DNA of 35,153 nucleotides, taken from IMG/VR virus record IMGVR_UViG_3300027845_000007, positions 1 through 35,153 of that record; one strand, given 5' to 3'. The translations under genes and the position numbers were made by a program. This DNA is from a virus (Duplodnaviria; Caudoviricetes). Shown here piece by piece: positions 1 through 35,153 of this stretch. The notes under the pieces were generated by a model. That model made no database searches, was not told where the DNA came from, and was given only the letters and a program-made list of their open reading frames with translations. Numbering within the stretch: the first letter of the stretch is position 1; each line of letters opens with the position of its first letter.

Positions 1-99
1 CTTTTATCGAGTCGAGGGGCGTCTTTATTGGGACTCTTCGAAAGAATCTTTGATGAGTCGTTTTCCAAAACTCGCCGAACTCGCCGAACCGAAATCCGT
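1..99. repeat. Left copy of 99-bp terminal direct repeat (circular assembly overlap)
   Basis: 1..99 is identical to 35055..35153 (cttttatcga...gaaatccgt). Confidence 0.97.
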
Positions 100-859
100 C
101 ACGTTCATTCCTTCGAAGGTCACGGACAATCAAATCTTATTGAAAAAAGATCCTAGTTATATGGCGAACCTCCTCGCTCAATCCGCCGTTGAAAGGGCGA
201 GACTCCTTGACGGAAATTGGAATATAAGACCGACGGCCGGAAACGTATTCAAACGATTTTGGTTCGAAGAGGTTGAGGCGACTCCTCCTCTCGTTGAGAT
301 TGTTCGTTGTTGGGATCGAGCGGCGACGGAATACAATGAAGGCGACTCGGGCGATCCGGATTATACGGTCGGATTCAAACTCGGGAAAGATGCGAACGGT
401 TTCTTTTATATCCTCGATATAATTCAAGAACGTTTATCGGCCCATAAGGTTGAGGCCTTGATCTTGAACACGGCGAAACAAGACGGAGTCGGAGTCAAGG
501 TCAAAGGATTCCAAGATCCCGGAGGGGCCGGAAAGAATGAGATCGAAAACTTTATTCGATTACTTTCGGGATTTGACGTCGTGTCGGAGAAGATCTCCGT
601 TGATAAGATCACGGCCTCGAAAGGCGCGTCCGCTCAATCGGAGGCCGGAAATATAAAGGTTCTTTCATCGTGTCGCAATAAAGAGGCGTTTTATAATGAG
701 GCGGAAAACTTTCCGGACGCGAATCACGATGATATTATCGACGGATTCACGGGCGCGTTCAATTGCTTGACCGCCGGAAACGTTGGAACTTTTACGGATG
801 ATATGGGACAATATGAAGAAAACGATTCCTTGACGGATTTCGAAACAATGGATTGGTGA
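1..859 (+). CDS. terL: Terminase large subunit, C-terminal part (nuclease domain); continues from 34447 across the join, about 488 aa in total
   Basis: ORF 50..859 is in frame with the ORF from ATG 34447 through the overlap. Motifs ARLLDGNW, WDRAAT, DPDYTVG, QDPGGAGK and FP..NHDDIID are typical of terminase C-terminal nuclease domains. Confidence 0.93.
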   Translation, partial: FYRVEGRLYWDSSKESLMSRFPKLAELAEPKSVTFIPSKVTDNQILLKKDPSYMANLLAQSAVERARLLDGNWNIRPTAGNVFKRFWFEEVEATPPLVEIVRCWDRAATEYNEGDSGDPDYTVGFKLGKDANGFFYILDIIQERLSAHKVEALILNTAKQDGVGVKVKGFQDPGGAGKNEIENFIRLLSGFDVVSEKISVDKITASKGASAQSEAGNIKVLSSCRNKEAFYNEAENFPDANHDDIIDGFTGAFNCLTAGNVGTFTDDMGQYEENDSLTDFETMDW

Positions 860-864
860 TAAAA

Positions 865-3348
865 ATGGGAATACTTGACGGATTATTCGGGAAAGATAAA
901 AGCGAAGAGATTCAAGACGACGACAAGCTCGAAGTAAAAGGCGAGAGCGTGAAAGTCGTTGAGGTCGGTTCTTCGGGGACGGAGATATACGCCGGGAATC
1001 TTCAAGAGGAATATCTCTCGGATCTTCAAGGAACTCGCGCCGCCGATATGTTTGATCGAATGAGGCGTTCCGATCCGAAAGTCAAAATGACGGTTTCCGC
1101 AATGAAGAACCCGATCAATTCGGCCTCATGGGAAATCGCCGGAACCGAAGAGGAAGAGTCCGAACAAGGCGAGAAACAAAGAAAACTTATCGAGCATATT
1201 CTTTTCAATGACTCGGGGAAAACCTGGGATCGCTTTATTCGCGAGGCCCTCTCGATGATCGAGTTCGGTTATTCCCTTTTTGAAGTCACTTATAAAGCTG
1301 AAATAAATCATCCGAATTTCGGAGCATATAACGGGATCAAGTCCCTGGCCTTTCGTTCTCAAAGAACAATTGAGGCCTGGCATATCAAACGTTCGGGAGA
1401 ACTCGATCGAGTTGAACAACAAGCGAACGGAGACGAACAAAAAAACGTCGATATCGCCGCCGAATTTTTACTTCATTTCGCGATTGAAATGGAGGGAGAC
1501 AACTTCGAAGGGATCTCAATTCTCCGTCCGGCGTATGGGCCTTGGTTGAGAAAAAACGAGTTCCTTAAATTACTGGCCGCCGGAGTTGAGAAGTACGCGA
1601 TTCCGATTCCGACTCTTTCCGTTCCGGCCGGGAAAGAACAATCTCAAGAATATAAAAAAGCGAAACAAGCCCTTCAATCATACGTCTCTCATCGTTGTAA
1701 TTATTTGATGATTCCGGCCGGTTGGGATCTTGACTTAACGACGAACACGTTCGACGCGGAAAAGATTCGAAAGGTTATAAACGACGAGAACGTTGAAATC
1801 GTCAACGCCGCTCTCGCGAACTTCCTTGAACTCGGACAATCCGGTTCGGGATCTTATGCGCTCGGAACGGATCTCTCCGACTTTTTCCTTGGAGGCCTGG
1901 AATATATCGCCGATCAAATAACGGACGTCATAAACAACGTATTGATCCCGAAACTTGTCAAACTTAATTTCCCCGATGGGATCGTTCGTTGTGAACTTCG
2001 TCATTCGGGAATAAGGGACAAGGCCGGAGAAGAACTCTCGAAGATCGTGACGGAACTCACGAACGCCGGAGTCATAATCGCCGATGATCGTCTCGAAGAG
2101 TCGATGAGAAAACGATTCAAACTCCCGGAGAGAGAAGAGTCAAGTTCAAGAACTCAAGAACAAGAGGGAGGGATCGTTCCTCCTCCGACGAGTCCGGACA
2201 CGGTTCCCGTTGTTGTTGATCCTGGCCAGGCCGAAGAACCGGAGGACGACGAGGACGTGAAAAAACTCGCGTTGAACGGGGCCCAAGTGACCGCAATTGT
2301 CGCCGTCGTGAAATCATTTAAAGAGGGAGTGATCGACAAATCGAGCGCGACCGAACTTATCACAACGGCCTTTCCAATACCGAGAAACGTTGTCGAGAAG
2401 ATTGTCGGAGAAGAGATCTCGAAAGAAGATCTCGCCGCGATCTCGGAAACACAACTCTCCGAAGATAAGCCGGGAAAGGATAAGGAGGGCGTCGAAGAAC
2501 CTCCGAAAACAAAGATCGACACTCCGAAAGAAGAACCAATCGTTTCAAAGATGATCGGAAAAGAGGCGGTCAATCTCGGGACTCTTTATGAGTCAAACCT
2601 TGATGAAATTCAAACGGAAATGATCGGAGTCGTGACGAAACACTTTAAGACCGCGAGTCCCGAAAAGAAGTTTCAAGTCTCGATTGAAGAACTCTTGAAG
2701 GTTCCTTCAATTGGAAAATATAAAGCTCAAGTAAAAGAACAACTTTCAAAGGCATATAATGACTCGATCAAACAAGCGAAGATCGAGAACCCGGACGAAG
2801 CTCAAAATCAAATGAGTGAGAATGAATATTCCGTCACTCTTTCCGAGAACGAAAAACTCCCGGATATTGCGAAGGCGAGAATCGACTCGGATCTCGCGAA
2901 CGTTGTTGACACTCAAGTTCAAGATCTCGCGAAGGCCGCGTCTCTTCAATATGGAATGAGCGTTGAATCAACCGAAGATCCGGAAGTCCTGGCCTCAAAG
3001 ATAAAAGAGTCAACCGACAAAACAAAGAAAACCGCCGCGACAACCGGGGCGAATATCCAGGCCGCGAAAACCGTGAACGATGCGAGAAGAGATTTTTTCA
3101 ATTCTTTCACGAACGAAGTCGAGTCGTTCACTTGGATCAATCAAGATCCCGTTTCGGATATATGTAAAAGCCTCAACGGCTTGACCTTGAAGGCCGATGA
3201 TCCCGACGTTGCGACGTACTGGCCGCCATTGCATCACAATTGCAAAACGTTCACGGTCGCGAATACGGCGAAAACAAAGGATAATCCGAAACCGGATGAA
3301 AATTATCAACCTTCAAAGACCGCTCTCAAATCAATGAGCATAAAATAA
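865..3348 (+). CDS. Portal protein (DUF935/Mu gp29-like) fused to a C-terminal Mu gpF-like head morphogenesis domain
   Basis: Follows terL. N-terminal ~430 aa have DUF935-type motifs (FGYSLFEV, GISILRPAY, GSYALG). After an acidic Pro-rich linker comes C..LNG....DD....WPPLHHNCKT, typical of Phage_Mu_F. ATG 865 preferred over GTG 853. Confidence 0.85.
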   Translation: MGILDGLFGKDKSEEIQDDDKLEVKGESVKVVEVGSSGTEIYAGNLQEEYLSDLQGTRAADMFDRMRRSDPKVKMTVSAMKNPINSASWEIAGTEEEESEQGEKQRKLIEHILFNDSGKTWDRFIREALSMIEFGYSLFEVTYKAEINHPNFGAYNGIKSLAFRSQRTIEAWHIKRSGELDRVEQQANGDEQKNVDIAAEFLLHFAIEMEGDNFEGISILRPAYGPWLRKNEFLKLLAAGVEKYAIPIPTLSVPAGKEQSQEYKKAKQALQSYVSHRCNYLMIPAGWDLDLTTNTFDAEKIRKVINDENVEIVNAALANFLELGQSGSGSYALGTDLSDFFLGGLEYIADQITDVINNVLIPKLVKLNFPDGIVRCELRHSGIRDKAGEELSKIVTELTNAGVIIADDRLEESMRKRFKLPEREESSSRTQEQEGGIVPPPTSPDTVPVVVDPGQAEEPEDDEDVKKLALNGAQVTAIVAVVKSFKEGVIDKSSATELITTAFPIPRNVVEKIVGEEISKEDLAAISETQLSEDKPGKDKEGVEEPPKTKIDTPKEEPIVSKMIGKEAVNLGTLYESNLDEIQTEMIGVVTKHFKTASPEKKFQVSIEELLKVPSIGKYKAQVKEQLSKAYNDSIKQAKIENPDEAQNQMSENEYSVTLSENEKLPDIAKARIDSDLANVVDTQVQDLAKAASLQYGMSVESTEDPEVLASKIKESTDKTKKTAATTGANIQAAKTVNDARRDFFNSFTNEVESFTWINQDPVSDICKSLNGLTLKADDPDVATYWPPLHHNCKTFTVANTAKTKDNPKPDENYQPSKTALKSMSIK

Positions 3349-3386
3349 GGGAATAAAGTTTGAGGGATTTATTGTCGATACTTGAC

Positions 3387-3415
3387 TTGAATCCCTTTTA
3401 AAAAGAAAATAGATT
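3387..3415 (+). promoter_or_regulatory. Putative sigma70-type promoter for head genes
   Basis: TTGAAT(3387-3392)-17 nt-TAGATT(3410-3415) in the intergenic gap before the protease gene. Confidence 0.5.
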
Positions 3416-3437
3416 ATACGGACAAGGAAAAAAACTT

Positions 3438-4502
3438 ATGGACAAGAAAACATTCCGAACGGTTCCTCTCTCGATTCAATTCAAAGAGGGAAACACCGTC
3501 GAAGAGATCCCGACTCGCGTTCAACTTATGAGAACGGGAACGTTCTTCGATAAACGCTATGGAAAGATTGACGTCGTCGAAGATCATTTCAATAATATGA
3601 TAAAACAATTTCAAGAGGGAGTTCGAGGAATCGAACTTATGATTGATTATAAACACGACTCCGACGCGGAGGCGGCCGGTTGGATAAAAGGACTTGAAGT
3701 CATTCAAGAACAATTATCGGAAGGCAACGCGGACGAGGGAATCGAACCGAGAATTGAATCTCAATTATGGGCCGATATTAGTTGGACACCGGAAGGCGCG
3801 AAGAAACTCGCCGATCGTGAGTTCGCTTATCTTTCGGCCGACTTCGATCCCGATTATCGCGACAACGAAAATCCCGAGGTAAGTTTTGGACACGTCCTTT
3901 TAGGCGCGGCTTTAACAAACCGGCCCGTAATAAAAAGGATGAGTCCGGCCATTCAATTGAGTGAAAACGAATCATCAATAACCAACAAGGAGAATATTTT
4001 GAAAACAAATGAAGTGAAACTCTCCGAGCTTGAAACGGAGAACAAGGAAATGAGTGATTCACTCGCGAAAGTCGAAGGCCTTATGAAAGACCTGGGACTT
4101 GAGTCGATTGAAGATCTTATGAAAATGATCTCGGATTTGAGAGCGGAAAACGAAACAATGAATGAGGAAAAAGAATTGAGCGAAAAGAAAACTCAACTTG
4201 ATTCTCTTTTAAAAGACGGAAAGATCAACGCCGCTCAACACGAAGGCGCGTTGAAACTTTCAAGTGACGAGTTCAAAGGTTTTCTTTCAATGGCGAAAGT
4301 CGGAGAAAAAGCCGTGAAACTTTCCGAAACCGGAAACAATGAAACTCCGAGCGAAGAAAACAAAGAAGAGGACGTTCAAGATCAAGTGATTTCATTATCT
4401 GAAAAGAAAATGAAAGACAATGAGGGAATGACTTTTTCGGAGGCCACGGCCGAAGTTCTCAACGAGAACAAAGAACTAGCTAAAAAATATAGCGAAATCT
4501 AA
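3438..4502 (+). CDS. Mu-like prohead protease (gpI) with C-terminal scaffold region
   Basis: IDYKH, AAGWI, WTPEG, YLSADF and GAALTNRP match Mu-like protease motifs; charged helical C-terminus. Confidence 0.88.
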   Translation: MDKKTFRTVPLSIQFKEGNTVEEIPTRVQLMRTGTFFDKRYGKIDVVEDHFNNMIKQFQEGVRGIELMIDYKHDSDAEAAGWIKGLEVIQEQLSEGNADEGIEPRIESQLWADISWTPEGAKKLADREFAYLSADFDPDYRDNENPEVSFGHVLLGAALTNRPVIKRMSPAIQLSENESSITNKENILKTNEVKLSELETENKEMSDSLAKVEGLMKDLGLESIEDLMKMISDLRAENETMNEEKELSEKKTQLDSLLKDGKINAAQHEGALKLSSDEFKGFLSMAKVGEKAVKLSETGNNETPSEENKEEDVQDQVISLSEKKMKDNEGMTFSEATAEVLNENKELAKKYSEI

Positions 4503-4513
4503 GGAGGATTTTT

Positions 4514-4879
4514 ATGAGTTCATATAAGACACCGGAAATTTTTACTTATGAGGCCGACGGCGTGATCGCTATTGGATCTCAATTTCATCTTGCAAAATTC
4601 GGATCGAAAGACGATTCAATTGTTCTAAGTGATGCGGACGCGAAGGCGATCGGCGTGATTATGAGCGAAGTTTGCGGAGTTGACGGAGAACAACTTGAAG
4701 TCGCGGGGCCTAACGGCGGCGCGGTTGTAAAAGTTGCGGCGGCCATTGCGGCCGGAGAATACTTTAAAAGTGATGCGGCCGGAAAAGCCGTTGTTGCGGC
4801 CGATCGCGCGAGTGCGCTCGGACAAATCGACGAGAGCGCGACGGCGGCCGATCAGGTTGTTGCTTGTGTTTTATTCTAA
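4514..4879 (+). CDS. Head decoration/cement protein (DUF2190-like)
   Basis: 121-aa Ala/Gly/Val-rich protein with AAIAAGE..KSDAAGKAV, between protease and capsid genes; RBS AAGGAGG. Confidence 0.7.
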   Translation: MSSYKTPEIFTYEADGVIAIGSQFHLAKFGSKDDSIVLSDADAKAIGVIMSEVCGVDGEQLEVAGPNGGAVVKVAAAIAAGEYFKSDAAGKAVVAADRASALGQIDESATAADQVVACVLF

Positions 4880-4894
4880 TTAAGGAGAATTAAA

Positions 4895-5830
4895 ATGGCT
4901 CAAATGAAAGCAATTGTTGATAAGTTATTGACGAACGTTTCGAATATGTATTCCCCAACGGGTTATATTTCGGAAACCGCGCTCCCGACTTTAAGCGTGA
5001 AACAAAAAACCGGGAAAATTGGAAAGTACGGAAACAACCATATTCGTTTGGTAAACGCGAAAATGGGCGGACGAGGAAAGGCGAGAAGATTCGAACCTAT
5101 CATTCGCGATTCGGAACTTTATTCAATCGAATCTCACGGACTCGAAGGAACGGTCACGGAGGACGATTATTCAAACGTTGAGGAACCGTTCAGCGCGGAG
5201 AGCGATGAAACAAACGGATTGACTTCGACTTTATGGACGGGGAAAGAACACGCCTTCGCGGCGGCCATAACCGATCCGGCGTTGATTACTCAAAACGTTG
5301 ATATCGTTGCTCCGGCGGATAAGTTCACGGATTATACGAACTCGAAACCTCTTGAAGTTTTCAGAGACGCTCAAGACGCCGTTCTTGACGGTTGTGGTGT
5401 TATGCCAAACCGAGCGATTATCTCTCAAAAAATGTTCAATGTTTTGAAATATCATCCGTCAATTCTTAGAACCCTGGGATATTCGGACAACCGCGCCGGG
5501 ACTCTTCAATTGAGTGAAATCGCTCATGCGATGGGCGTTGATATTTTACACGTTGGGGACGCGTCTTATAATGCGTCTAAATTGGGAGAGGCGGACGCTC
5601 TCACTCAATTATGGGGAAATGATATTGTATATTATCACGCTCCAAAAACGGCGGCGAAATATCAAACTTGTTTCGGTTATTACATGGTTCTTAAAGGAAA
5701 AGGATCGAGAAGAGTTTTCAAGTATAATGCGAACAATCCTCCGGGATCAAAAAACATTATAGTTCAAGATGATTGGGCCTTTGCAATAACAAACGCGAAG
5801 TGCGCTTATCTTATTCAAAACGCTATCTAG
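4895..5830 (+). CDS. Major capsid protein
   Basis: 311 aa, expected position, VDKLLTNVS N-terminus, G.MPNRAII..K.F.VLK.HP and C-terminal AYLIQNAI as in HK97-fold capsids; strong RBS and downstream terminator. Confidence 0.85.
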   Translation: MAQMKAIVDKLLTNVSNMYSPTGYISETALPTLSVKQKTGKIGKYGNNHIRLVNAKMGGRGKARRFEPIIRDSELYSIESHGLEGTVTEDDYSNVEEPFSAESDETNGLTSTLWTGKEHAFAAAITDPALITQNVDIVAPADKFTDYTNSKPLEVFRDAQDAVLDGCGVMPNRAIISQKMFNVLKYHPSILRTLGYSDNRAGTLQLSEIAHAMGVDILHVGDASYNASKLGEADALTQLWGNDIVYYHAPKTAAKYQTCFGYYMVLKGKGSRRVFKYNANNPPGSKNIIVQDDWAFAITNAKCAYLIQNAI

Positions 5831-5837
5831 TAAAATC

Positions 5838-5860
5838 AAGGGGCCTTCGGGCCTCTTTTA
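5838..5860 (+). terminator. Intrinsic terminator after the capsid gene
   Basis: AAGGGGCC-TTCG-GGCCTCTT-TTA hairpin with cUUCGg tetraloop. Confidence 0.75.
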
Positions 5861-5872
5861 AACGAGGTCAAA

Positions 5873-6100
5873 ATGTTTGGAAAAGAAGATAAAAAAGAAG
5901 AGAAAAAACCCGTTGATAAGGCGGTTGAAAAAGCTGAAAAAAAAGTGACAAAAAAAGCTCCGGCGAAAACGTCGAGTTCAAGCGATAAGATCGCGAAGTC
6001 CGCTTTTTATTTCGGCGGAAAACACTTCAAAACGGGCGACGTTGTTGATCTTGGAAAAGAAGATCTTTCGTTCCTTGAAGAAAAAGGAAAACTTAAATGA
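5873..6100 (+). CDS. Small Lys-rich head-associated protein
   Basis: RBS GAGG; C-terminal GKHFKTGDVVDL...L...G pattern common in genes following capsid genes; ATGA overlap with next gene. Confidence 0.65.
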   Translation: MFGKEDKKEEKKPVDKAVEKAEKKVTKKAPAKTSSSSDKIAKSAFYFGGKHFKTGDVVDLGKEDLSFLEEKGKLK

Positions 6101-6546
6101 GTTATTGTTCGGTTGATGATATCTCCTCCGACTTCAAAGATATCGTAATTTCAACAACGTCCTCCGTGACGATTGAAGAGGTTGAGAAGTTTATTGATGA
6201 GGAAACCGCGTTCATTGATTCGATGATTTGTTCTCGATATCAAGTCCCGGTTGTTGAGCTTGATTCGCCGAACGCCTTCCTTGTCTTGAAACGTATATGT
6301 ATTTTTCTCGTTTCGGATCGTGTTCGTCACGTCCTTTATGTAAAAACCGGGAGAGACGCGAGTGATCAAGACACGAAGGGACTCCGCTCCTTATCACGTC
6401 AACCGAGAAGAGATCTCGAGGCGATAAGGGATAATAAGTCAAAACTCGGGGACGCGATCGCCCTCGAGGAGTGTATTGGTTTCGACGTTGGAACCGATCA
6501 AACTTGTTCGGATATGAGATTCAATCCGAATAAACAACAATGGTGA
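6097..6546 (+). CDS. Head-tail adaptor (Mu gp36/DUF1320-like)
   Basis: MSYCSVDD start, IDS.I.SRYQVP, LKRIC and L.AI...K..LG pattern; synteny. Confidence 0.75.
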   Translation: MSYCSVDDISSDFKDIVISTTSSVTIEEVEKFIDEETAFIDSMICSRYQVPVVELDSPNAFLVLKRICIFLVSDRVRHVLYVKTGRDASDQDTKGLRSLSRQPRRDLEAIRDNKSKLGDAIALEECIGFDVGTDQTCSDMRFNPNKQQW

Positions 6547-6550
6547 GAGA

Positions 6551-7171
6551 ATGAGTCAAGGGCCCCTGGGTTTTATATCTTATGAAGTCGAAAACGACAC
6601 GGAGTTCGCGAAGGCATTGGGCCGCGCCGCTCGAAAGATATCAAATCTCACGGTTCCTTTAAATCAAATCGGGAACGATTTTCGAAAGTCTCGAAAGGCG
6701 ATTTTCGCTCTCACGTCGGCCGGACAATATCCGGATCTTTCGACAAGACCTCTCCGCGTTTGGTGGGAACCGCCGGAGACTCAACTCAATGGTTTTTATC
6801 CGGGAGGATATAAAGAGTTGAAAGAGGCGAAATATGGTTTCGCTTATCCCATCTTAAAGGCGACGGGAGAACTTGAAGATTCCGTCATAAATAAATCGAA
6901 TCAATATAATATAAATGAAATCAATATTGATGAGGCGAAATTCGGGACTTCGATTCCTTATGGCGTTTATCATCAAGAGGGGACAAAGAATATCCCGATG
7001 AGGAAATTCTTGTTCATAGGGCCCGAGGCCCCAAGGTTCGCGAAGGGCGACGCCTTGAAAGGATTCCCGGAGAGGGCGTTGAAAACTCTTGAAGTTTATG
7101 TTCTTCGTCAAACCGGACAATCAATCGAAGAGGCGACGGGCGTGAAACCTGGCCTCAAAGGAGACAAATAA
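6551..7171 (+). CDS. Virion morphogenesis/neck protein (Mu gpG-like)
   Basis: IL..TGEL..S, FGTSIPYGVYHQEGT and IPMRKFL motifs. Confidence 0.8.
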   Translation: MSQGPLGFISYEVENDTEFAKALGRAARKISNLTVPLNQIGNDFRKSRKAIFALTSAGQYPDLSTRPLRVWWEPPETQLNGFYPGGYKELKEAKYGFAYPILKATGELEDSVINKSNQYNINEINIDEAKFGTSIPYGVYHQEGTKNIPMRKFLFIGPEAPRFAKGDALKGFPERALKTLEVYVLRQTGQSIEEATGVKPGLKGDK

Positions 7172-7656
7172 TGATATATATTGAGGACGTTCTCAATCAA
7201 GCGATTTGTCTTGTCAAAGATAATATAAACGACGAACTCACGAAGATCGACGTCGAGCGCGCCGGAGAAACAAATCCAATCACAATGAAACCAATCGACA
7301 CGGAGAACGGGATTGTCTTTCAATCGTTGAACAATCTCCCCGTCAACTTCGATCCGATTTTATATTATGGAGTTGATCAAGTTGAAACCGATCCCATTGA
7401 GTCCGCTCAAGGGGAAACGTGGTCAATGGAGTTCTCAATCATTCTTTCCGATCCTCAAGATAGGACGGCGGAAAAAAGAGTTCTTCGATATCAACGAGCA
7501 TTGAAAAGTATTTTTTTAAACAACTATATAAAGTTAAACAATATGAGACAAAAAGTGAGAGTGCGATCATTGAACCCGGTCGCGTTCACTCTCCCTAATG
7601 CCTCAATTGAGTTTCGGGCAATCGGGATATTAGTCGAAACAACTTTATTTCAATAA
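7171..7656 (+). CDS. Putative tail terminator/completion protein
   Basis: 161 aa, directly upstream of the tail tube gene; TAATG coupling; call rests on synteny. Confidence 0.6.
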   Translation: MIYIEDVLNQAICLVKDNINDELTKIDVERAGETNPITMKPIDTENGIVFQSLNNLPVNFDPILYYGVDQVETDPIESAQGETWSMEFSIILSDPQDRTAEKRVLRYQRALKSIFLNNYIKLNNMRQKVRVRSLNPVAFTLPNASIEFRAIGILVETTLFQ

Positions 7657-7672
7657 CTAAGGAGAGTGAAAA

Positions 7673-8590: not shown

Positions 8591-8610
8591 ATTGTCAATG
8601 AAATTTGAAT

Positions 8611-8644
8611 AAAAGAGAGGGCCTTGAATAAGGCCCTTTTTTTT
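8611..8644 (+). terminator. Intrinsic terminator, possibly bidirectional
   Basis: AGGGCCTT-GAAT-AAGGCCCT followed by a T run; A-rich on the 5' side. Confidence 0.85.
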
Positions 8645-8695
8645 GAGACAATTTGAAAGTGTGATTGAATGACACGAAGTCGCCTCTCACGTCTT

Positions 8696-26500: not shown

Positions 26501-26513
26501 AATTTTCCCCTTG

Positions 26514-26539: not shown

Positions 26540-26633
26540 CAGGCCTGGACTTATAACGAGTCCAATCTCCGGGGACAAGGTTGTTCGAAATTCCGGCGTC
26601 TCCTCCCGTTTTATGAATCTCTTTTATATAATC

Positions 26634-27068: not shown

Positions 27069-27817
27069 TTTGATGCTCCTTTTTGTTTGGTTGTTTCTTG
27101 ATTTGAGTTCAAGATTTTATTGATAATATGATTCATATTCGGATCTTCGAATTGTTTAAGTTTCCCGGAACGATCTCCGGCGATCGCCTTGTCATAAGTT
27201 GACGTGACGAGTTTTCGAATTTCCTTTCCTTCGTCGTTCATAAATTTTCGATATTGAAAAACCTCATCGACTAGGGCCGGAACTCTTTGAGAGATCTTTC
27301 CGTTGAGATCAACTCCGACAAATCTCCGTGAGAGATCATCTTTGTCCGCGACTTCGAGGGCCAGGAATAAAACATTGTAAGGCTTATAGTCTCTCATTTG
27401 TTTAACGAGATCCGTTATTTTATCGGAATAATCGCCCCATAATCTCAATGAATCTTTCGCGTCCGGATATTTTTTCTTCATTGATTCAACGAGGCATTGA
27501 CCGACCTCCGTGAGAGAATCAATCACAATCCACTTATATTTTTTCTTCATTTCGTCTTTCGACAAAACGTTCGTGAATAAATGAATGAGCTTTTCGAATC
27601 GCATATCCCGACTCATTGGAACGTTGTTCTTGTCAACCGTACAATCATAAACGTCGATGATCTCATCTTGAAGAGATAAAAGTCCGTTTTCCATATTGAC
27701 GATGAGAGTTTTTCCGGGAAGTGTTTTCGCGAGAGAAGTCTTTCCGATTTTTGGTTGACCGTAAACGAGCGCAACAATGCGCGCATCTTGTTTGATCTTT
27801 TTCGTGTCCGTAAACAT
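27065..27817 (-). CDS. AAA_24/Sak4-like ATPase (ssDNA-annealing recombinase)
   Basis: YGQPKIGKT Walker A, ENGLLS, VIDSLTE, WG, A.DRSG.L; RBS AAGGGG before ATG 27817. Confidence 0.85.
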   Translation of the reverse strand: MFTDTKKIKQDARIVALVYGQPKIGKTSLAKTLPGKTLIVNMENGLLSLQDEIIDVYDCTVDKNNVPMSRDMRFEKLIHLFTNVLSKDEMKKKYKWIVIDSLTEVGQCLVESMKKKYPDAKDSLRLWGDYSDKITDLVKQMRDYKPYNVLFLALEVADKDDLSRRFVGVDLNGKISQRVPALVDEVFQYRKFMNDEGKEIRKLVTSTYDKAIAGDRSGKLKQFEDPNMNHIINKILNSNQETTKQKGASK

Positions 27818-27839
27818 ATTATTTTCCCCTTGATTGATT

Positions 27840-27898
27840 GAAGGCATTGAACTATTATCTCAAAACATTGTCAACAATAAAAAAAGGGACTCAACTCA
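27840..27898. promoter_or_regulatory. Divergent early control region with near-palindromic operator candidate
   Basis: TTGACA on the - strand lies inside the near-palindrome ATTGTCAACAAT (27867-27878), between divergent operons. Confidence 0.45.
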
Positions 27899-28111
27899 AT
27901 GAAACTTCATAAATACTTGAAAGACACCGGAATCACGATCGCTCGTTTCGCGAGATCATGCGATATAAATGAAAATACAATGAACACTTATGTTCACGAA
28001 AAAGCGGAACCTAGTCTCAAAAATGCTTTAACAATTGAAGAACAATCTCACGGAGCGATTACATTGAAAGAACTCATCCTTGAGAGAACCGAAAAGAACT
28101 CTCAAGAATAA
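27899..28111 (+). CDS. Cro/XRE-like helix-turn-helix protein
   Basis: MKL..YL...GIT...FA...I...T...Y.....PS...A..IE..S.GAIT pattern of Cro-like proteins. Confidence 0.8.
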   Translation: MKLHKYLKDTGITIARFARSCDINENTMNTYVHEKAEPSLKNALTIEEQSHGAITLKELILERTEKNSQE

Positions 28112-28137
28112 GTCTTGAACAAAAAGGGGAAAACTTT

Positions 28138-30285
28138 ATGTTCGAGAAATACTATAACGAATATTTTGAAAAAGATCTAATTGTCATCCCATTGAGGGGA
28201 AAGATTCCCGTTCTTAAAAATTGGAGTCTCTTCGCGAAAACGCGTCCGAGCGAACTTCTCCTCGACTCATGGGAAAATAAATATAAAAGATTCAATATCG
28301 GTTTGATATGCGGCGAACTCTCCGGAGTGATCGCGATTGATATTGACAAAGAAGAGGCATTGAAAAAAGTCCCTCTTTCCCCGGTCACTAAAAAAGGGAA
28401 AAAAGGAGAGACGAGATTCTTTCGATATAATGGAGAAGTGAATTTCAAGCGTCACGATCTCGGGATTGAACTCTTGTCCAATGGAAATCAAACCGTCCTC
28501 CCTCCGTCGATTCATCCGGAGACAAAGGAGGCTTATGTTTGGAACGGACAATTCGATCTCTTGAGTTTTGATATTGAAGATCTCCCGATTCTCGATCCCG
28601 ATTGGTTGAGAGAGATCGGAATGATCCCGGTTGATAAACAAGTTTCATCCGGAAGGCATAATCGACTTATTGAAATTTGTTCGGCCATGTTCGCGAGAGG
28701 AGAAGATCCAACGGCGATCGCGAACGAGTTGATTCGATATGACGAGGAGAATCACTCTCCGGCGTATTTTACGGACGACTCCGAAGCTCATGGCGGAAAG
28801 GGATTCAATTCAGCTTTAAAGATGATCGCCTCCGTTTCGGAAACAATAACGAGAAGAGGAGGGGACGTCTCTCCCAAAAAGTTCGAAATCGTATTCGGCG
28901 AAAAGGAAGTCGAAAAAGCAATCGAAGAGAACGAGAAAAAAGAACAAATGAAAGAGGTTATATATCCGGAACCTCCGGGAATGATCAAAGAGATTCAAGA
29001 TCATATTCTTTCGATATCTCATAAGCCTCGAGATAAGTTCGCCCTGGCCGGAGCGTTGGGACTCATAGGAACTCTCCTTTCAAATAAGGTCAAGTTTCAC
29101 GAATCGACTCCGAACTTATATCAATTATTGATCGCGGAGTCGGGAGAGGGGAAAGACGTTCCGCTCAAGGCCCCGAAAGAATTATTGATCGAGGCCGGAT
29201 TGTTGCAATACGTCGGGCTTGAATCATATCGAGGGGACAAATCCGTCGTGAAAAAATTTGAATCCCAACGGGAACGAGTTGACACGCTGGACGAAGTGTC
29301 AAAACTTTTCCGCTCGATCAACTCAAAATCAAACACGTTTCAATCAAATATCGCGGAGACTCTCACGGAGATATGGAACTCCTCATCGAAGTTGTTTATG
29401 GGCCATACGACGGCCGAAGGAACGACGGGTATGGTTTTCAAGCCGTGTCTCTCTATAATGGGCGCGACGACTCCGAACTCGTTCTCCGAGACGTTCTCGA
29501 GTTCAAACTTGATGCAAGGATTCGGAGGTCGATTTGTTTATATATTTGATGATCGGAGAGTCAAGCTCAAGAGAGTGAGACGAAAGAAGTCTCCCGAAAA
29601 CGTCCTGGACTTTATAGAGTATTGGGGAACGCGGAACGTCGAGATCGAGAACGTCGATATTTCAAAGACCGCAACGTTTCATCTTGACTTGTCTCAAAAA
29701 AATCCTCAAACCGTTCAACTCAAAGATCTCGAGTGTCCGGAACCGATTGACCTTCCGATTCAAGAGGAGGCGGAAAAATTACTTGATAAGGCGAGTCAAT
29801 ATTTCGACGAATATCGTTATCATTGCGAGGAAATGATCATCCCGATTGTTCTTCGAGCATATCAACAAATCGAGAAGATAATGATTATAAGCGCGATCGC
29901 GACGGCCTGGGAGGAAAAGGGAGTCATAAATCCGGCCCCGATGATAAAAGCGTCGGACGTTCAATTCGCGTGGGAATACGTTGAGGCGACAATCAAATCG
30001 ACGGCTATCTTTTTCGGAAGGAACTTGATACAATCTAGTTTCCAACGAGACGCCCAAAAAGTCTTAAAGGTTCTTCGAGGTTTCCCGAAAGGATTATCGA
30101 AAAAGGATCTCACTTATAAGTTGAGAAACTCGTTTAAGGCGAATCAACTCTATAATAAGCGCGACGGGATTATCACTTCCTTATGCGAGGACGGACGACT
30201 CAAGGAGTTCAAGGTCAAACCCGACGAGGGGAAAGGCGGAACGGGGACAACTCTTTTCGTCTTAAACAAGGATCTTGATAATTAA
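28138..30285 (+). CDS. Bifunctional primase-polymerase fused to a DUF3987-like helicase
   Basis: NIGLICG..SGVIAIDID and VLPPSIHP..Y.W (Prim-Pol); GRHN.L (PriCT-like); AESGEGKD, DE, PCLSIMGATTP, GF..RF. Confidence 0.85.
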   Translation: MFEKYYNEYFEKDLIVIPLRGKIPVLKNWSLFAKTRPSELLLDSWENKYKRFNIGLICGELSGVIAIDIDKEEALKKVPLSPVTKKGKKGETRFFRYNGEVNFKRHDLGIELLSNGNQTVLPPSIHPETKEAYVWNGQFDLLSFDIEDLPILDPDWLREIGMIPVDKQVSSGRHNRLIEICSAMFARGEDPTAIANELIRYDEENHSPAYFTDDSEAHGGKGFNSALKMIASVSETITRRGGDVSPKKFEIVFGEKEVEKAIEENEKKEQMKEVIYPEPPGMIKEIQDHILSISHKPRDKFALAGALGLIGTLLSNKVKFHESTPNLYQLLIAESGEGKDVPLKAPKELLIEAGLLQYVGLESYRGDKSVVKKFESQRERVDTLDEVSKLFRSINSKSNTFQSNIAETLTEIWNSSSKLFMGHTTAEGTTGMVFKPCLSIMGATTPNSFSETFSSSNLMQGFGGRFVYIFDDRRVKLKRVRRKKSPENVLDFIEYWGTRNVEIENVDISKTATFHLDLSQKNPQTVQLKDLECPEPIDLPIQEEAEKLLDKASQYFDEYRYHCEEMIIPIVLRAYQQIEKIMIISAIATAWEEKGVINPAPMIKASDVQFAWEYVEATIKSTAIFFGRNLIQSSFQRDAQKVLKVLRGFPKGLSKKDLTYKLRNSFKANQLYNKRDGIITSLCEDGRLKEFKVKPDEGKGGTGTTLFVLNKDLDN

Positions 30286-30595
30286 AATTCTTAATATCTC
30301 AATGTTCAATTCTTATCATCTTGAAGGGTTTCTTCGGTTCTCCCTATATGGTATATATACGTTTATATATGTATTATATAAATATATTAGTTTTTTAAGA
30401 ACTATAAGAACAAGCATTGAGTCAAGAGAATTTTCTCAATCAAAACAAGAGGTTCCAATTTTGGAGGGTTTCATTTTCAAAAAGGAAAGTTCCAAGGAAA
30501 CTCCGCTATGACGCGAAGAGAATTGAGGAGAGTTTCACGGAGAGTTTCACTTTTCGAAATGAAACTTTCGAGTATATAAAAAATAAGGAGGACTT
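30286..30595. other. Putative replication origin (AT-rich tract plus iteron-like repeats)
   Basis: TATA-rich tract 30345-30390; GGAGAGTTTCAC tandem at 30527-30538 and 30539-30550, with related copies nearby; directly downstream of the primase-helicase gene. Confidence 0.65.
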
Positions 30596-30841
30596 ATGAC
30601 GGACGACAAATATTTGAGATTGAAAAGATTATTGAAATCGAAAGGGATTCACGACGTCGTTCTCAATATCGAAACACCGACAACCGATGCTCCATATATA
30701 TCGGGAACCGTTCATCCGGTTCGAACTCCCGTCCATACGGGAGAGATTATATTGAAGTTGTCCTATAAGGTTCGTCCGGACGATATGAGAGCGGTTGATC
30801 ATGCTCTCACGATATTGAAGGAACTCAAGGAGATCGAATGA
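30596..30841 (+). CDS. Hypothetical protein
   Basis: Strong RBS AAGGAGG. Confidence 0.65.
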   Translation: MTDDKYLRLKRLLKSKGIHDVVLNIETPTTDAPYISGTVHPVRTPVHTGEIILKLSYKVRPDDMRAVDHALTILKELKEIE

Positions 30842-30897
30842 TTTTCCGAGAAGTTCAATGTATAATTTTATTGATGAAACAAATAAGGAAAAATTAA

Positions 30898-31287
30898 ATG
30901 AGTTTTGATAAGCCGGATTGTTTTTTCCGAGAGGAACAAGTTTGGAACTCCGTTTATGATCACGGAAAACAAATCATCCGGACTCAAACTCGAAACAAGT
31001 GTATTCCGAAGATCGAAAGGATTCAAGTTTCCGATAAGGATTCCGAAGAGTCTTTCGTCTTTCCAAAAAATATAACGGCGTTTTCAATTCGCGACTCCGG
31101 AAACTCTCGAATGAGATATTCCTATGAGACGGGAGAAGTTGAGAACGTTTCGGGAAACTTTTTGGAGTTCGGGCCGTACGCGATTTATAAGGAGAGTGAA
31201 TTGAATCGAAAAGATTTTGACGATCTCACTCTTTATTTTTCAAGCTCGAAAGACAATAGAATCATTGAAGTTATTTATTGGACTTAA
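30898..31287 (+). CDS. Hypothetical beta-rich protein (possibly virion-associated)
   Basis: RBS AAGGA; TATAAT at 30861; first gene of a tightly packed block. Confidence 0.6.
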   Translation: MSFDKPDCFFREEQVWNSVYDHGKQIIRTQTRNKCIPKIERIQVSDKDSEESFVFPKNITAFSIRDSGNSRMRYSYETGEVENVSGNFLEFGPYAIYKESELNRKDFDDLTLYFSSSKDNRIIEVIYWT

Positions 31288-31299
31288 AAGGGAGAGTTT

Positions 31300-31896
31300 A
31301 TGAGTCACGAAAGAGAAACATTTCCAATCTTGGAAAACATTGAAAACGAAAAAGGAGAAGTTGTTCATAGGTTGAACGAAGGTGATCGTCCCGTTGCGGA
31401 TGATCTCACAACTAAAAAGAACGGCCTCATCGGTTTTTCATTTAAAGATAAGGACGGGAGAGTTGTTCTCCCTCAACTAAATAACGAAGGCGCGATCACG
31501 GTTTCATTTGACGCCGGAACGACAATTCGAGGACGAGGCGCGGACGTTGACGGAGACAAGGCCGCGAAGATGGTTCTTGTTGACTTGACGTTGACCGCCG
31601 ATCGAACTTATTCGAAATTATCCGCTCAAGGATCTTGTTTCCGAGACACGGAGTTCGAGGTTGTTTTGATTGATGATTCCGCCGGATCTCCGGTTGAGAC
31701 TCTCCTTGAAGAGTTTTTGACGGGGCCTGGACAATTCACAACGAAGTCGGGACTTGAAATCGACGAGTTTAATACAACCGGATTCTCGGGAGTTGTAAAA
31801 TTACAACTTCGCGCGATAAACTTGAATCGAGAATCAAAAACAATCGGTTCGATGAGTGTCAACGAGATAATCGCGAACACAACTCCAAACCCATAA
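31300..31896 (+). CDS. Hypothetical beta-rich protein (possibly virion-associated)
   Basis: RBS GGGAG; 198 aa. Confidence 0.6.
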   Translation: MSHERETFPILENIENEKGEVVHRLNEGDRPVADDLTTKKNGLIGFSFKDKDGRVVLPQLNNEGAITVSFDAGTTIRGRGADVDGDKAAKMVLVDLTLTADRTYSKLSAQGSCFRDTEFEVVLIDDSAGSPVETLLEEFLTGPGQFTTKSGLEIDEFNTTGFSGVVKLQLRAINLNRESKTIGSMSVNEIIANTTPNP

Positions 31897-31907
31897 GGAA
31901 ATGAAAG

Positions 31908-32219
31908 ATGAGTCATAATCTCCCCGAGTTTTCAGATAAGGCCTCCGACGGCGGCGTCAATAAAATTTTGACCGTCGCGGCCGGAGCGATCGAGGAACTC
32001 ATTGTTGTCGGAACCGAAGTTCAATTCGAAAGAGAATACGTTTCTTTCGAGGCCCTCGACACCGGAATGAAATGGGGATATTCCGGAGATCCGGGAGGAC
32101 AAATATTCAATTGCTATAAGTCGCAATTTTTTATCCTTCCTTTCGGCCCCGGGACTCGGATCTTTTTCTTAAACACGAAGGGAACTCCCGTCGATATTGC
32201 AATCGCGGAGGTTTCTTAA
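31908..32219 (+). CDS. Hypothetical small beta-sandwich-like protein
   Basis: RBS AAGGA; 103 aa with alternating hydrophobic pattern. Confidence 0.6.
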   Translation: MSHNLPEFSDKASDGGVNKILTVAAGAIEELIVVGTEVQFEREYVSFEALDTGMKWGYSGDPGGQIFNCYKSQFFILPFGPGTRIFFLNTKGTPVDIAIAEVS

Positions 32220-32744
32220 ATGGGCGCGCCGTTCACTTATCCCGTTTCATTCTCTCTCCCGTTCGAATCCGAACCGGATCGTTTGAACGGGTTTGTTTCA
32301 AAGAACGCTCAAGACGCGATCGAAGAGGCCCTCGCTCTCGCGATTCAAAACGATCGATTCCTTGTCCTCGCGAATTATGGAGGGAACGCGAACAACGGGA
32401 GAATCCTTGAGTTTTATCCTGGCCTTGATTCACAAGAGGCCCCCATTGTATTCGGGGCCGGAGGCGCGGCGGTTATTGCAATCACGGCGGCGACAACCGC
32501 GAACTCATCGAACGCGGAGATTTCATTTTATGACGTTGCCGCCGATCCGAATTTGAACTCGCCTCTTTATACTCTCGATATGAACGGACAAAAAACGAAA
32601 ACGGATATCGGTTTTCTCGGAACTCCCGGAGTTCCGGCGATCCCTCTTTTCCCAATGCCTCCAAGCGGAGAACTCGCGGTCAAGGTTTCGTCGTCGAGTA
32701 TTCAAAAACCTCATCTTCAAATTGTTTTTAGTTCGAGCTTATAA
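32220..32744 (+). CDS. Putative fibre/decoration protein
   Basis: GFVSKNAQDAIEEA resembles the NVQ.AI.E motif of phage fibres; beta-rich C-half. Confidence 0.55.
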   Translation: MGAPFTYPVSFSLPFESEPDRLNGFVSKNAQDAIEEALALAIQNDRFLVLANYGGNANNGRILEFYPGLDSQEAPIVFGAGGAAVIAITAATTANSSNAEISFYDVAADPNLNSPLYTLDMNGQKTKTDIGFLGTPGVPAIPLFPMPPSGELAVKVSSSSIQKPHLQIVFSSSL

Positions 32745-32753
32745 GGAAAGATT

Positions 32754-33404
32754 ATGATTATAAAAAACTTATTGAATCCCGGATCACCTCAAACGTTTGG
32801 AGGAGTTCAAATCGACGGAGACGAATCTTATTCAATCGCCGCGAGTGAACTCAAAGGATTTCAACTTGATGAGAAACTTTCAAACGCGTTGACAAGCGAT
32901 CCTCCGACCGCATCGATCGACGACGTGACCGGATCGGACGGTCTTGAAATACTTCTCGACTCATCAAACGAACCAACAATCACGGCCCCTTTCGCATCGA
33001 AAACGGTTGACGGGAAAAAGATCTTTCGAAGAAAACACGGAATCACTCAAGATTGTCCGGTCGGAAACACGACTTTCGAGTTCGTCGTTCCTTATGATCT
33101 CGTAAAAATAAACGAACTTGAAGTCGTCAACGGCCAGGCCGGAGACACGGTTGATCTTGTTGTTCACGACACTCCTCAAGGCCATATTCAAATGAGCATG
33201 GGCGTTCCTCCGGGATCGATTACTCCGAGCGCGCCATTGAATCAATTCGGTTTTGACGTCGCCCTTCCGGACGGATTCTTTCACGACGAATCTCAATACG
33301 ACGCCGATCTCATCAAGGATATGAAAATCGTTGTGACTTATAAAAACAACGGAAGTGAAACTTTTAAAAACGGAATGAATATTGTTTATCACGAATTGAA
33401 ATAA
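32754..33404 (+). CDS. Hypothetical protein (possibly virion-associated)
   Basis: RBS AAGGA; 216 aa. Confidence 0.6.
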   Translation: MIIKNLLNPGSPQTFGGVQIDGDESYSIAASELKGFQLDEKLSNALTSDPPTASIDDVTGSDGLEILLDSSNEPTITAPFASKTVDGKKIFRRKHGITQDCPVGNTTFEFVVPYDLVKINELEVVNGQAGDTVDLVVHDTPQGHIQMSMGVPPGSITPSAPLNQFGFDVALPDGFFHDESQYDADLIKDMKIVVTYKNNGSETFKNGMNIVYHELK

Positions 33405-33414
33405 AGGATTGAAC

Positions 33415-33675
33415 ATGGCCATCAAGAAAACAACAAAGATCGTGACCTTCGGGATTATCCCTTTGATGATTATTGGAGTTCTCATATATGACGTTTTCGC
33501 AATAAGCGAAGGCGGAACGGAGGCCTCAATCTCAAGTCTCTTGATCTCATGGTCTTATAAAATGCCTTTTTTGACTTGGAGTCTTGGATTCTTTCCGGGA
33601 GTCCTTGTCGGTCATTTATTTTGGAGAATGAAAGGAAACAAGGACACGATCGAGCTTGATGTAAAAGCAAAATAA
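33415..33675 (+). CDS. Small 2-TM membrane protein (holin candidate)
   Basis: Two hydrophobic segments with a charged C-terminus; RBS AAGGA. Confidence 0.5.
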   Translation: MAIKKTTKIVTFGIIPLMIIGVLIYDVFAISEGGTEASISSLLISWSYKMPFLTWSLGFFPGVLVGHLFWRMKGNKDTIELDVKAK

Positions 33676-33681
33676 TCCGAT

Positions 33682-33717
33682 ATTGTCCGGACAATTCTTT
33701 TCATATACAATTGAAGT
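33682..33717 (+). promoter_or_regulatory. terS promoter with a perfect 14-bp palindrome over the -35 box
   Basis: ATTGTCCGGACAAT (33682-33695); TTGTCC-17 nt-TACAAT(33706-33711), 6 nt before the ATG. Confidence 0.6.
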
Positions 33718-34260
33718 ATGAAAGAAGAGAAGAAAAACAAATTGACGGACAAGCAAAAAGCGTTTTGTCGCGAGTATCTTGTTGATTTCAATGGAACTCG
33801 AGCGGCGACCGCCGCCGGATATACTGAAAAGTCGGCCCGAGTTCAAGCGGCCAAAATGCTAACAAAAGGAAACATTCAAGACGAGATCAAACGTCTCGCC
33901 GATGATCTCAATAAGACTCACGGAAATTCAATTGAAAGAATCATTCTCGAATTGCAATTGATCGCGTTCGGCGATTATCAAGACCTTGTTGTTTGGGACG
34001 AACACGGAGTCAAGTCATGGGTTCCCTCTTCGGAACTCGGAGACAAATCAAGACTCGTTCAAGAGATCTCGGAGACGACAACTCAACACGGCGGATCTCG
34101 TAAAATAAAAACATACGATAAGGTTCGGGCCCTTGAAATGCTCGGGCGATATCATAAGATTTTCACGGATAAGGTTGAACACTCGAACCCGGACGGGACT
34201 CTCGCTCCGATCGTGAATATCGTTATTCCGTCCAATGGGCGAGAGGCGAAAGATGAATGA
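33718..34260 (+). CDS. terS: Terminase small subunit
   Basis: LTDKQKAFCREYLVDFNGTRAA..AGY, ELQLIAF and DKVRALEMLGR match the Terminase_2 pattern. Confidence 0.92.
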   Translation: MKEEKKNKLTDKQKAFCREYLVDFNGTRAATAAGYTEKSARVQAAKMLTKGNIQDEIKRLADDLNKTHGNSIERIILELQLIAFGDYQDLVVWDEHGVKSWVPSSELGDKSRLVQEISETTTQHGGSRKIKTYDKVRALEMLGRYHKIFTDKVEHSNPDGTLAPIVNIVIPSNGREAKDE

Positions 34261-34508
34261 CAAAAAAGAAAATAGACGCCGCCGGGTTTTGTATAACGTG
34301 CGGACTTCGAAAGGGAATACATAAGGTCGCGAACGATTCATTGAAAAGGATCGAAGAACTCGAAAAGGAAATCGAGGACGCGACAACAATCAACGCGGAT
34401 CTCGCGAAACAAAACGAACGAATTGAGAGAGAGGGAAATAAACTCAATGGCGAAAACCAACAACTCCGGAAAGAGTTCAAAGAACTCTCCGAATCAAAAA
34501 GTTTATAA
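34257..34508 (+). CDS. Hypothetical coiled-coil protein with CxxC..H
   Basis: ATGA overlap with terS; overlaps the terL start by 62 nt. Confidence 0.5.
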   Translation: MTKKKIDAAGFCITCGLRKGIHKVANDSLKRIEELEKEIEDATTINADLAKQNERIEREGNKLNGENQQLRKEFKELSESKSL

Positions 34509-35153
34509 TATAAGTCCCCAGGCCGGGCCTCAAACTTCGTTCCTTGAGAGCGAGGCGGATATTGTTATATATGGAGGGGCCGCCGGAGGGGGGAAAACTT
34601 ATGCGATCCTCCTCGACTTCCTTCGACACTATGAGAACCCGAAGGCCGGGGGAGTTTATTTCCGGCGAACATATACTCAAATTCGAAACGAAGGCGGCTT
34701 ATGGGACACGGCCGACGAAGTCTTTCGAAAGGTCGGAGCGGTTCCGAAAGAAGTTTCCTCTCAATGGGTTTTCCCGTCGGGCGCGGCGATCAAGATGGCC
34801 CATCTTCAATACGAGAAAAACGTTTATGATTATCAAGGTTCTCAAATCCCTGTAATTTATTTCGATGAGTTGACTCATTTCACGGAGAAACAATTCTTTT
34901 ATCTTATGAGTCGGAACCGATCAACGTCGGGAATCCGTCCTTATATGAGGGCGACAACAAACCCGGACGTTGATTCCTGGGTTCGAGAGTTTATTGATTA
35001 TTGGATCGACGAAGAGGGATTTCCAATCGAAGAACACGGAGGACAAATCCGTTTCTTTTATCGAGTCGAGGGGCGTCTTTATTGGGACTCTTCGAAAGAA
35101 TCTTTGATGAGTCGTTTTCCAAAACTCGCCGAACTCGCCGAACCGAAATCCGT
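34447..35153 (+). CDS. terL: Terminase large subunit, N-terminal ATPase part (missing from the ORF track because it runs off the end)
   Basis: My translation from ATG 34447 gives PQAGPQ, YGGAAGGGKT (Walker A), FRRTY, YFDELTHF (Walker B) and RATTNP, running into SLMSRFPK of ORF 50..859. Confidence 0.93.
   Translation, partial: MAKTNNSGKSSKNSPNQKVYNISPQAGPQTSFLESEADIVIYGGAAGGGKTYAILLDFLRHYENPKAGGVYFRRTYTQIRNEGGLWDTADEVFRKVGAVPKEVSSQWVFPSGAAIKMAHLQYEKNVYDYQGSQIPVIYFDELTHFTEKQFFYLMSRNRSTSGIRPYMRATTNPDVDSWVREFIDYWIDEEGFPIEEHGGQIRFFYRVEGRLYWDSSKESLMSRFPKLAELAEPKS
35055..35153. repeat. Right copy of the 99-bp terminal direct repeat
   Basis: Identical to 1..99. Confidence 0.97.

Follow-up and report, generated by a model that had tools for sequence, protein, structure and literature searches.

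Selective loss of CAG and CTG outside CCWGG sites in the genome of a marine-sediment phage

By common understanding, a restriction-type defence requires a target of at least four bases, and phages are not known to purge asymmetric words of three. In a survey of double-stranded DNA phages, avoidance was found mainly for orthodox type II restriction sites and was not systematic for type I or type III sites (Rusinov et al. 2018, PMC6286503). Vsr, a repair system, converts CTWGG to CCWGG (W = A or T; PMC2715241). The phosphorothioate consensus C*AG has been reported and is the only three-base CAG target that we found in print (PMC11931770). C*A was described in isolates with the BREX type 4 brxPCZL genes, and the other motifs given there are N*CTC, GA*AG and GA*CG (PMC12914056). 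The sensor of BREX type 1 binds unmodified sites on phage DNA (PMC11842806) and, by analogy, would select for site loss. Here, we describe IMG/VR record IMGVR_UViG_3300027845_000007, positions 1 to 35,153, the complete, circularly permuted genome of a tailed phage (35,054 bp, not counting a 99-nt terminal repeat from assembly overlap), in which CAG and its complement CTG (together CWG) are nearly erased outside CCWGG. This whole stretch of 35,153 nucleotides is called the window below.

The window contained 82 CAG/CTG sites (35 CAG and 47 CTG), of which 58 lay inside CCWGG (25 CCAGG and 33 CCTGG). The other 24 (10 CAG and 14 CTG) compare to approximately 909 expected from base composition, an observed/expected ratio (O/E) of 0.026, and to 481 ± 19 under a dinucleotide model, 30 simulations of which never gave fewer than 440. 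The purge outside CCWGG was therefore 20- to 40-fold deep, with more than 95% of the expected copies gone. For CCWGG itself, the expectation was 46 by base composition and 22.8 ± 4.0 by dinucleotide shuffle, and none of 100 shuffles reached 58. A first-pass annotation, made from the sequence by eye, had claimed that CAG/CTG is nearly absent on both strands and in all frames. Its estimates of 55-60 CCWGG and 20-25 other sites, against about 45 and about 900 expected at about 44% GC, agreed well with the computed numbers and with a GC content of 44.1%. The four sites that it gave as examples (1298, 4853, 8523 and 19707) were all real, and no site was present in the first 1.2 kb or so, the first CWG being a CCTGG at 1223.

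The depletion was seen in all three reading frames when compared to a synonymous-codon shuffle, with 20 out-of-frame non-CCWGG sites where about 401 were expected. Intergenic DNA (1,150 nt) contained five CWG, four in CCWGG and one outside, compared to 21.7 expected. Frame independence therefore does indicate an effect at the level of DNA, as the annotation had argued, and codon bias alone was rejected. An RNA-level nuclease was also rejected because CAG and CTG were both depleted in the coding strand as well as in intergenic DNA. The loss was uniform along the genome, which rejects an effect of the first-injected region, and both orientations were lost alike, with the 10 CAG and 14 CTG counted on the plus strand. 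An assembly artefact was rejected, as near-identical contigs of other assemblies differ at 0-22 sites. By context, all 15 NCAGN words except CCAGG had an O/E of at most 0.10.

The loss of CAG/CTG is selection on a duplex DNA word and not the product of one mutation type, since in each frame the base that changed was the one that could do so silently. In frame 0, sites were cleared through the third base. Glutamine is nearly always CAA, as had been noticed at first, and was CAG in 1 of 331 non-CCWGG contexts. Frame 2 was cleared through the first base, with C found 5 times and T 118 times before AG or TG. In the frame where an NCW codon precedes G, both possible deaminations are non-synonymous, and sites would be expected to survive if deamination had removed the others. 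Instead, codons ended in W in 15 of 805 cases before G compared to 842 of 1,608 before other bases (p about 1e-167). These sites were 98% cleared through the middle base, while the dipeptides involved occurred at normal frequency (835 observed, 842 expected). The two deamination products were not both in excess: CAA/TTG was enriched (O/E 1.46), but TAG/CTA was 12-fold depleted (O/E 0.08).

Orthologous positions gave a similar result. In a hand tally that is unpolarised, and in which the close kin L002 and L010 are not independent, 169 identical-residue sites carried a non-CCWGG CWG in five relatives; the window retained 7 and had 48 deamination-type and 114 other replacements. The 78 middle-base changes among these were 43 transitions and 35 transversions. 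A strain differing at 22 of 10,712 bases had lost the site at 29287 and gained one near 32111, suggesting that single sites are tolerated.

A total of 155 sequences of at least 4 kb, comprising capsid relatives and G056, were reduced to 102 non-redundant sequences. The median non-CCWGG O/E was 1.08, and six sequences were at or below 0.35: the window (0.026), G056 (0.074), G004 (0.108), L008 (0.245), G043 (0.30-0.31) and G041 (0.35). G005 had an O/E of 0.49. G056 has an unrelated capsid, but it has in common with the window a clade of C5-cytosine DNA methyltransferases and a block of unannotated genes. The purge is labile and word-specific, because CWG-normal relatives and members purging other words occur. 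Phages sharing 69-86% capsid identity differed in purge depth (0.03 to 1.0), and the other words purged in the family were CTC/GAG (9 of 102, several from one clade), GCA/TGC, ACG/CGT, GAAC (four) and GAAG (one). The CTC/GAG purgers (L050, L057, L136, L137, G018, L038 and others) had O/E of 0.07-0.46 under the dinucleotide model. In L050, the order CCTC (0.03) < TCTC (0.06) < ACTC (0.25) parallels the reported BREX-4 preference of CCTC > TCTC > ACTC. GCA/TGC fell to an O/E as low as 0.08 in L002, L010, L105 and L024, in which CWG was normal, and L002 and L010 taken together had a Vsr-like bias (CCWGG 2.0, CCAAG 0.31). Words that match reported phosphorothioate motifs were low in several members, with no correction for chance: GAAG in G004 (0.16), GAAC in G041, L052, L066 and L086 (0.14-0.35), and GAGC and ACG words in L129.

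CCWGG is exempt from the purge in every frame. In CCWGG contexts of the window, glutamine was CAG in 8 of 15 cases, and before WGG, where CCWGG results, C and T were found 11 and 7 times. Proline codons ended in W in 8 of 26 cases before GG, 1 of 107 before other G-starting codons and 124 of 242 before codons not starting with G (p = 6e-6). Vsr has no silent route in the proline frame, so the exemption there is relief from selection. The same test was significant in five of six genomes, namely the window, G004, G043, G056 and G005, and not in G041. A Vsr-type bias was also present. Leucine CTG:TTG was 23:4 in the C_G context of the window and 2:155 elsewhere, and glutamine CAG:CAA within CCWGG contexts was 23:4 in G004, 41:1 in G043 and 4:10 in G056. 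CCWGG was thus favoured over its CTWGG synonyms in the window, G004 and G043 and not in G056. The bias was strongest in G043 (CCWGG O/E 2.34, CCAAG 0.23), which has no PF00145 match. The CCWGG mark is probably made by a host Dcm, because G043, a complete relative without a C5 methyltransferase, has both the exemption and the Vsr-type bias from CCAAG to CCAGG.

The window encodes an orphan C5-cytosine DNA methyltransferase (Table 1), which the first-pass annotation overlooked along with the GGCC overlap and the wider purge described below. Its catalytic motifs I, IV, VI, VIII and X are intact, and C86, E125 and Q157/R159/R161 are invariant across 36 homologues. The structural model (pLDDT 91) has a compact DNMT3-like fold with DNMT3A and DNMT3B as best Foldseek matches, followed by M.HhaI, and the enzyme forms its own clade in a tree; no answer on target specificity was obtained from the structure or the tree. 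It scored 59 bits against the Dcm model, the cut-off of which is 710 bits. The best cultured-phage matches were 30-39% identical and, thus, their targets are not transferable to it. No partner restriction endonuclease was detected by Pfam, PHROG, NCBIfam and PADLOC scans, with small open reading frames (ORFs) left without annotation. All three genomes examined from the enzyme's clade were CWG-purged. The clade may not always be purged if homologues P0130-P0139 belong with the CWG-normal L002 and L010, a tentative link. The C5-methyltransferase family as a general cause was rejected: in a scan of 80 carrier loci among the matches listed, with 2 below 5 kb excluded, 77 of the 78 other loci of at least 5 kb had an O/E above 0.45.

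GGCC was enriched 2.5-fold in the window and overlapped 46 of the 58 CCWGG. Half of the CCWGG half-sites (58 of 116) were preceded by GG, compared to 14.1 expected. All four GGCC-core six-base palindromes survive, GGCC being the sole such core of five four-base cores compared (CG-containing or GATC). In G056, which has the methyltransferase, 19 of 22 CCWGG half-sites were GG-flanked and CCSGG (S = C or G) was avoided. Some relief was found outside CCWGG with GGCC directly 5' of CAG (GGCCAGH 21 and GGCCTGH 1, H = A, C or T, in three genomes summed and confounded by flank effects), and 3 of the 24 residual sites of the window are GGCCAGT on the CAG strand. As judged from these sequences, the phage methyltransferase more likely marks GGCC than CCWGG, because the exemption occurs without the gene in G043 and because in G056, a carrier of the gene, nearly all retained CCWGG adjoin GGCC. 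GGCC was also enriched, 8- to 9-fold, in G049 (L098), L102 and L103, and G049 encodes a different C5 methyltransferase.

The first-pass annotation had offered two explanations, the first of which was a host defence that recognizes CWG and is blocked by methylation of its C. This explanation fits every test run, including word selection in all frames and exemption of CCWGG in all frames, and on the sequence evidence we regard it as reasonably probable that CAG/CTG is read by a host defence which 5-methylcytosine (5mC) on the C would block. A host self/non-self system would have a three-base duplex CAG/CTG target, and each unprotected site would cost the phage slight fitness. A Dcm-like methyltransferase of the host would place 5mC on both strands of CCWGG and thereby block the defence. 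The phage methyltransferase would mark GGCC and shield overlapping words; we propose that this is why the surviving CCWGG are often GG-flanked. A three-base target is the simplest reading, given that the 15 other NCAGN contexts are all depleted and that restriction sites with an N centre have enriched S-centred twins (TCCGA 3.2, GCCGC 2.6). The first candidate class for the reader, as a lead only, is phosphorothioate BREX type 4: the avoided word equals a three-base consensus on record, C*AG, as a word match only (PMC11931770). More tentatively, and with some doubt, marine-sediment bacteria may carry an undescribed CAG/CTG self/non-self system, plausibly of phosphorothioate BREX-4 type, that is blinded by 5mC. 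Phages might then escape it by the purge and by hiding sites beneath methylation by the host Dcm and by a GGCC methyltransferase of their own, and the other words purged in the family (CTC, GAAG, GAAC) might map the specificities of sister systems.

Several observations weigh against a methylation-blocked CAG/CTG defence or against the phosphorothioate lead. The residual sites are not context-neutral, as 16 of the 24 are TCAG and 8 of all 24 are TTTTCAG. The claim that CCWGG is spared held, but with these sites and the GGCC overlap it is not the sole favoured context. G041 is CWG-poor but does not spare CCWGG, and L008, at 86% capsid identity, contains just two CCWGG in 4.3 kb (O/E 0.29) and is too short for the proline test. 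At 71% capsid identity, L002 and L010 are normal in CWG content, and the word that they purge is GCA/TGC. The purge of the window extends to TAG, TAC and GCA and to dozens of longer words, which leaves room for many overlapping longer targets. Host defence, Dcm and Vsr genes were not seen, the host itself not being found in our searches. CCA was never among the purged trinucleotides in the 102 sequences, and the phosphorothioate motifs CCA, GAAC, GATC and GGCC were mildly or not depleted in the window. Dam methylation of GATC is a precedent for methylation blocking a phosphorothioate system, and a 5mC block of a C*AG system would be an analogy only. Phosphorothioate systems modify only 10-15% of their sites, and evidence that they act on motifs in the DNA of phages is not reported for them (PMC8092258). 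We found no report of phage avoidance of phosphorothioate motifs or of Dcm blocking such systems.

The purge reaches beyond CWG. The erasure was genome-wide, as first claimed, but it was not specific to CWG: CTA/TAG, GTA/TAC (O/E 0.17), GCA/TGC (0.22) and AGC/GCT (0.31) were also depleted. Palindromic 4- to 6-bp sites were under-represented, and 11 classic six-base palindromes with at least three expected copies were missing altogether. GGWCC was also absent while GGSCC was retained, and 63 six-mers with at least eight expected copies had none. A few palindromic or N-centred sites do not explain the CAG/CTG loss, given the 15 depleted NCAGN contexts and the enriched TCCGA and GCCGC. The non-palindromic AGCC/GGCT was depleted in exactly 7 of the 102 sequences (the window, G004, G005, G056, L002, L010 and L112), with GGCC usually enriched. 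AGCT was not depleted in most of this set and, therefore, RGCY restriction (R = A or G, Y = C or T) does not explain the AGCC/GGCT loss.

This heavy restriction-modification (R-M) footprint and the clustering of residual sites make a union of longer targets the main rival explanation. Here, there would be no single three-base reader but a large shuffled set of type IIG, IIS and III R-M systems with Dcm-sensitive targets of 4-7 bp, often containing CAG, the union of which erases CAG. The many missing palindromes and six-mers indicate that many R-M systems were faced, the TCAG and TTTTCAG clusters are in line with longer targets, the CAG loss in G005 and G041 is patchy and context-dependent, and CGCCWGG was avoided in all five sets compared. 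However, such a union would need at least four tetramer or fifteen pentamer targets that share CAG and are all Dcm-blocked. Phages also generally do not avoid asymmetric type I, III and IIG sites (PMC6286503), and the same purge recurs in G056 with its unrelated capsid. We therefore consider the union unlikely, though deserving of attention.

A host genome that is itself CAG/CTG-purged, through a costly self-acting mark, a nuclease or a repair bias, could also leave the phage to follow a lineage signature with no defence target. The phage does have a strong general signature (dinucleotide CG 1.69, TA 0.46), and one clear prophage relative, G003, matches the signature of its host. The spread of purge depth among close capsid relatives, the other words purged in the family and the lack of a single mutation type that accounts for losses at all three positions make this quite improbable. 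The distant family member G003:C13 (L169, L260, L261) is integrated in an alphaproteobacterial metagenome-assembled genome (MAG), and both prophage and host avoid CCWGG (O/E 0.08-0.41) and have normal CWG. A phage-encoded CAG/CTG nuclease that destroys host DNA, with the phage avoiding the site in its own genome, deserves very little credence. Several small ORFs of the window have no annotation, but the proteins scanned (46 with Pfam and PHROG, 29 with NCBIfam and 19 with PADLOC) yielded no nuclease other than a VRR-NUC resolvase and two DnaQ-type exonucleases, and among 22 window genes tested, no nuclease-like gene was exclusive to purged phages. The least credible explanation is the annotation's second one, that CWG is broadly methylated, for example by the phage DNMT3-like enzyme, and lost by deamination with CCWGG rescued by Vsr: the excess of CAA/TTG, the DNMT3A/3B matches, the three purged genomes of the clade and the existence of phage C5 methyltransferases with targets as short as GpC[C/T] (PMC8256090) favour it and the bias towards CCWGG gives some support to Vsr rescue as an addition, but the TAG depletion, the middle-base clearing, the 114 other replacements, the proline exemption and the CWG-poor G043 and G041 without a C5 methyltransferase contradict deamination as the main cause.

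Coordinates are collected in Table 1. Pfam and PHROG calls in the window include terminase, Mu-like portal, protease and capsid, tape measure, amidase, helicase, Sak4, primase, two DnaQ-type exonucleases and the C5 DNA methyltransferase; no integrase was detected in the window. The two separate DnaQ/DEDDh exonuclease genes (20596-21273 and 23445-24167, minus strand) lie either side of the amidase and methyltransferase, and no DNA polymerase was detected in the window by Pfam, PHROG and NCBIfam scans. Two small reverse-strand genes (8733-9175) are located between the probable major tail and tail-chaperone genes, and one of them encodes a DNA-binding protein resembling NikA, homologues of which occur in several relatives. 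The large terminase is divided between 1-856 and 34423-35153 solely by the circular assembly break. Its best matches (56-66%) sit in a clade with 39-42% capsid identity, which suggests module exchange. The block of unannotated genes is a marker of a common gene pool and not the cause of the purge, as its more distant homologues are mostly unpurged. The gene at 31300 was rejected as a purge marker, with six more distant carriers at an O/E of 0.45-1.43.

Table 1. Positions of the purged genome, its surviving and residual sites and the associated genes
Feature	Coordinates	Strand	Evidence or remark
Whole genome, purged of CAG/CTG outside CCWGG	1..35153		Terminal repeat, Pfam/PHROG gene calls, site counts
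58 surviving CCWGG sites, dispersed genome-wide	1223..34980		46 overlap GGCC
24 residual non-CCWGG sites	1298..34852		Listed in the next two rows
Residual non-CCWGG sites (i)	1298, 1573, 3219, 4399, 4853, 5191, 5362, 5934, 7719, 8523, 12996, 15876
Residual non-CCWGG sites (ii)	16944, 18180, 19635, 19707, 20597, 26051, 26693, 28811, 29287, 31933, 33824, 34850
Intergenic run of three abutting CCWGG = three GGCC sites	20246..20262		Sequence; clearest CCWGG/GGCC overlap
Orphan C5-cytosine DNA methyltransferase, 297 aa	22555..23448	-	PF00145 E 5e-44; TIGR00675 above cut-off
Block of unannotated genes	30898..33404	+	Homologues, among loci examined, only in CWG-poor G004, G005, G056

The phage was found in six sequencing runs, all from marine sediment and all possibly of the source sample, and run contigs aligned over 15001-35000 gave no usable variants. 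The host was not found: a capsid profile search of genome contigs gave only three distant loci at 44-49% identity. One of these is clearly a prophage, located in an alphaproteobacterial MAG of normal CWG content, and two are phage-sized contigs in MAGs. No close prophage was present in 201 genomes of the same alphaproteobacterial order, searches of cultured phages gave distant matches or none, and ESM Atlas matches were viruses or weak.

A literature search, with most subscription journals outside it, found neither a phage described as purged of CAG/CTG nor any mention of CCWGG being exempt. The purge, taken with the clean sparing of a known methylation site, would be a genetic footprint of the reader's contact, the C of CAG/CTG, and an oddity of composition becomes directly testable. 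These data also suggest that defence specificities of uncultured hosts could be inferred from the words missing in their phages, and that orphan Dcm and phage methyltransferases may have a masking role against another system.

Compared to known systems, the methyltransferase resembles phage orphan C5 methyltransferases (PHROG 116; Burke et al. 2021, PMC8256090) in being a solitary intact enzyme in the replication module; unlike those described in that work, it had no TET partner detected in the window by Pfam and PHROG scans. Dcm/EcoRII-type CCWGG methylation with Vsr very-short-patch repair likewise retains CCWGG in preference to CTTGG and CCAAG (PMC2715241, PMC10644984). However, Vsr maintains CCWGG and depletes CTWGG without removing CAG elsewhere, and the proline-codon exemption is unexplained by it. 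Phosphorothioate and BREX type 4 motifs (PMC11931770, PMC12914056) share with the family a CAG target on record, next to its purged CTC/GAG, GAAC and GAAG; those motifs come from gut bacteria in which part of the sites are modified, and any antiphage role of the variants is putative. The hemimethylating defences BREX type 1 (PMC11842806), type III R-M and MANTIS (10.64898/2026.09.23.753747) are like the proposed defence in that an asymmetric site in phage DNA triggers it and site loss should help. Their sites are approximately 6 bp, and escape from type III and MANTIS is strand-biased as described, whereas depletion in the window was not confined to one orientation. The purge is real, is under selection and is a variant of restriction-site avoidance, which as such is well known in double-stranded DNA phages (PMC6286503). 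As in that work, host target words are lost synonymously and on both strands. Unlike the avoidance described there, the purged unit is a three-base, non-palindromic word, the depletion is 20- to 40-fold and a sharp exemption lies within a methylation site. What is new here is this exemption, which recurs in four further genomes, together with frame tests by which selection can be told from decay.

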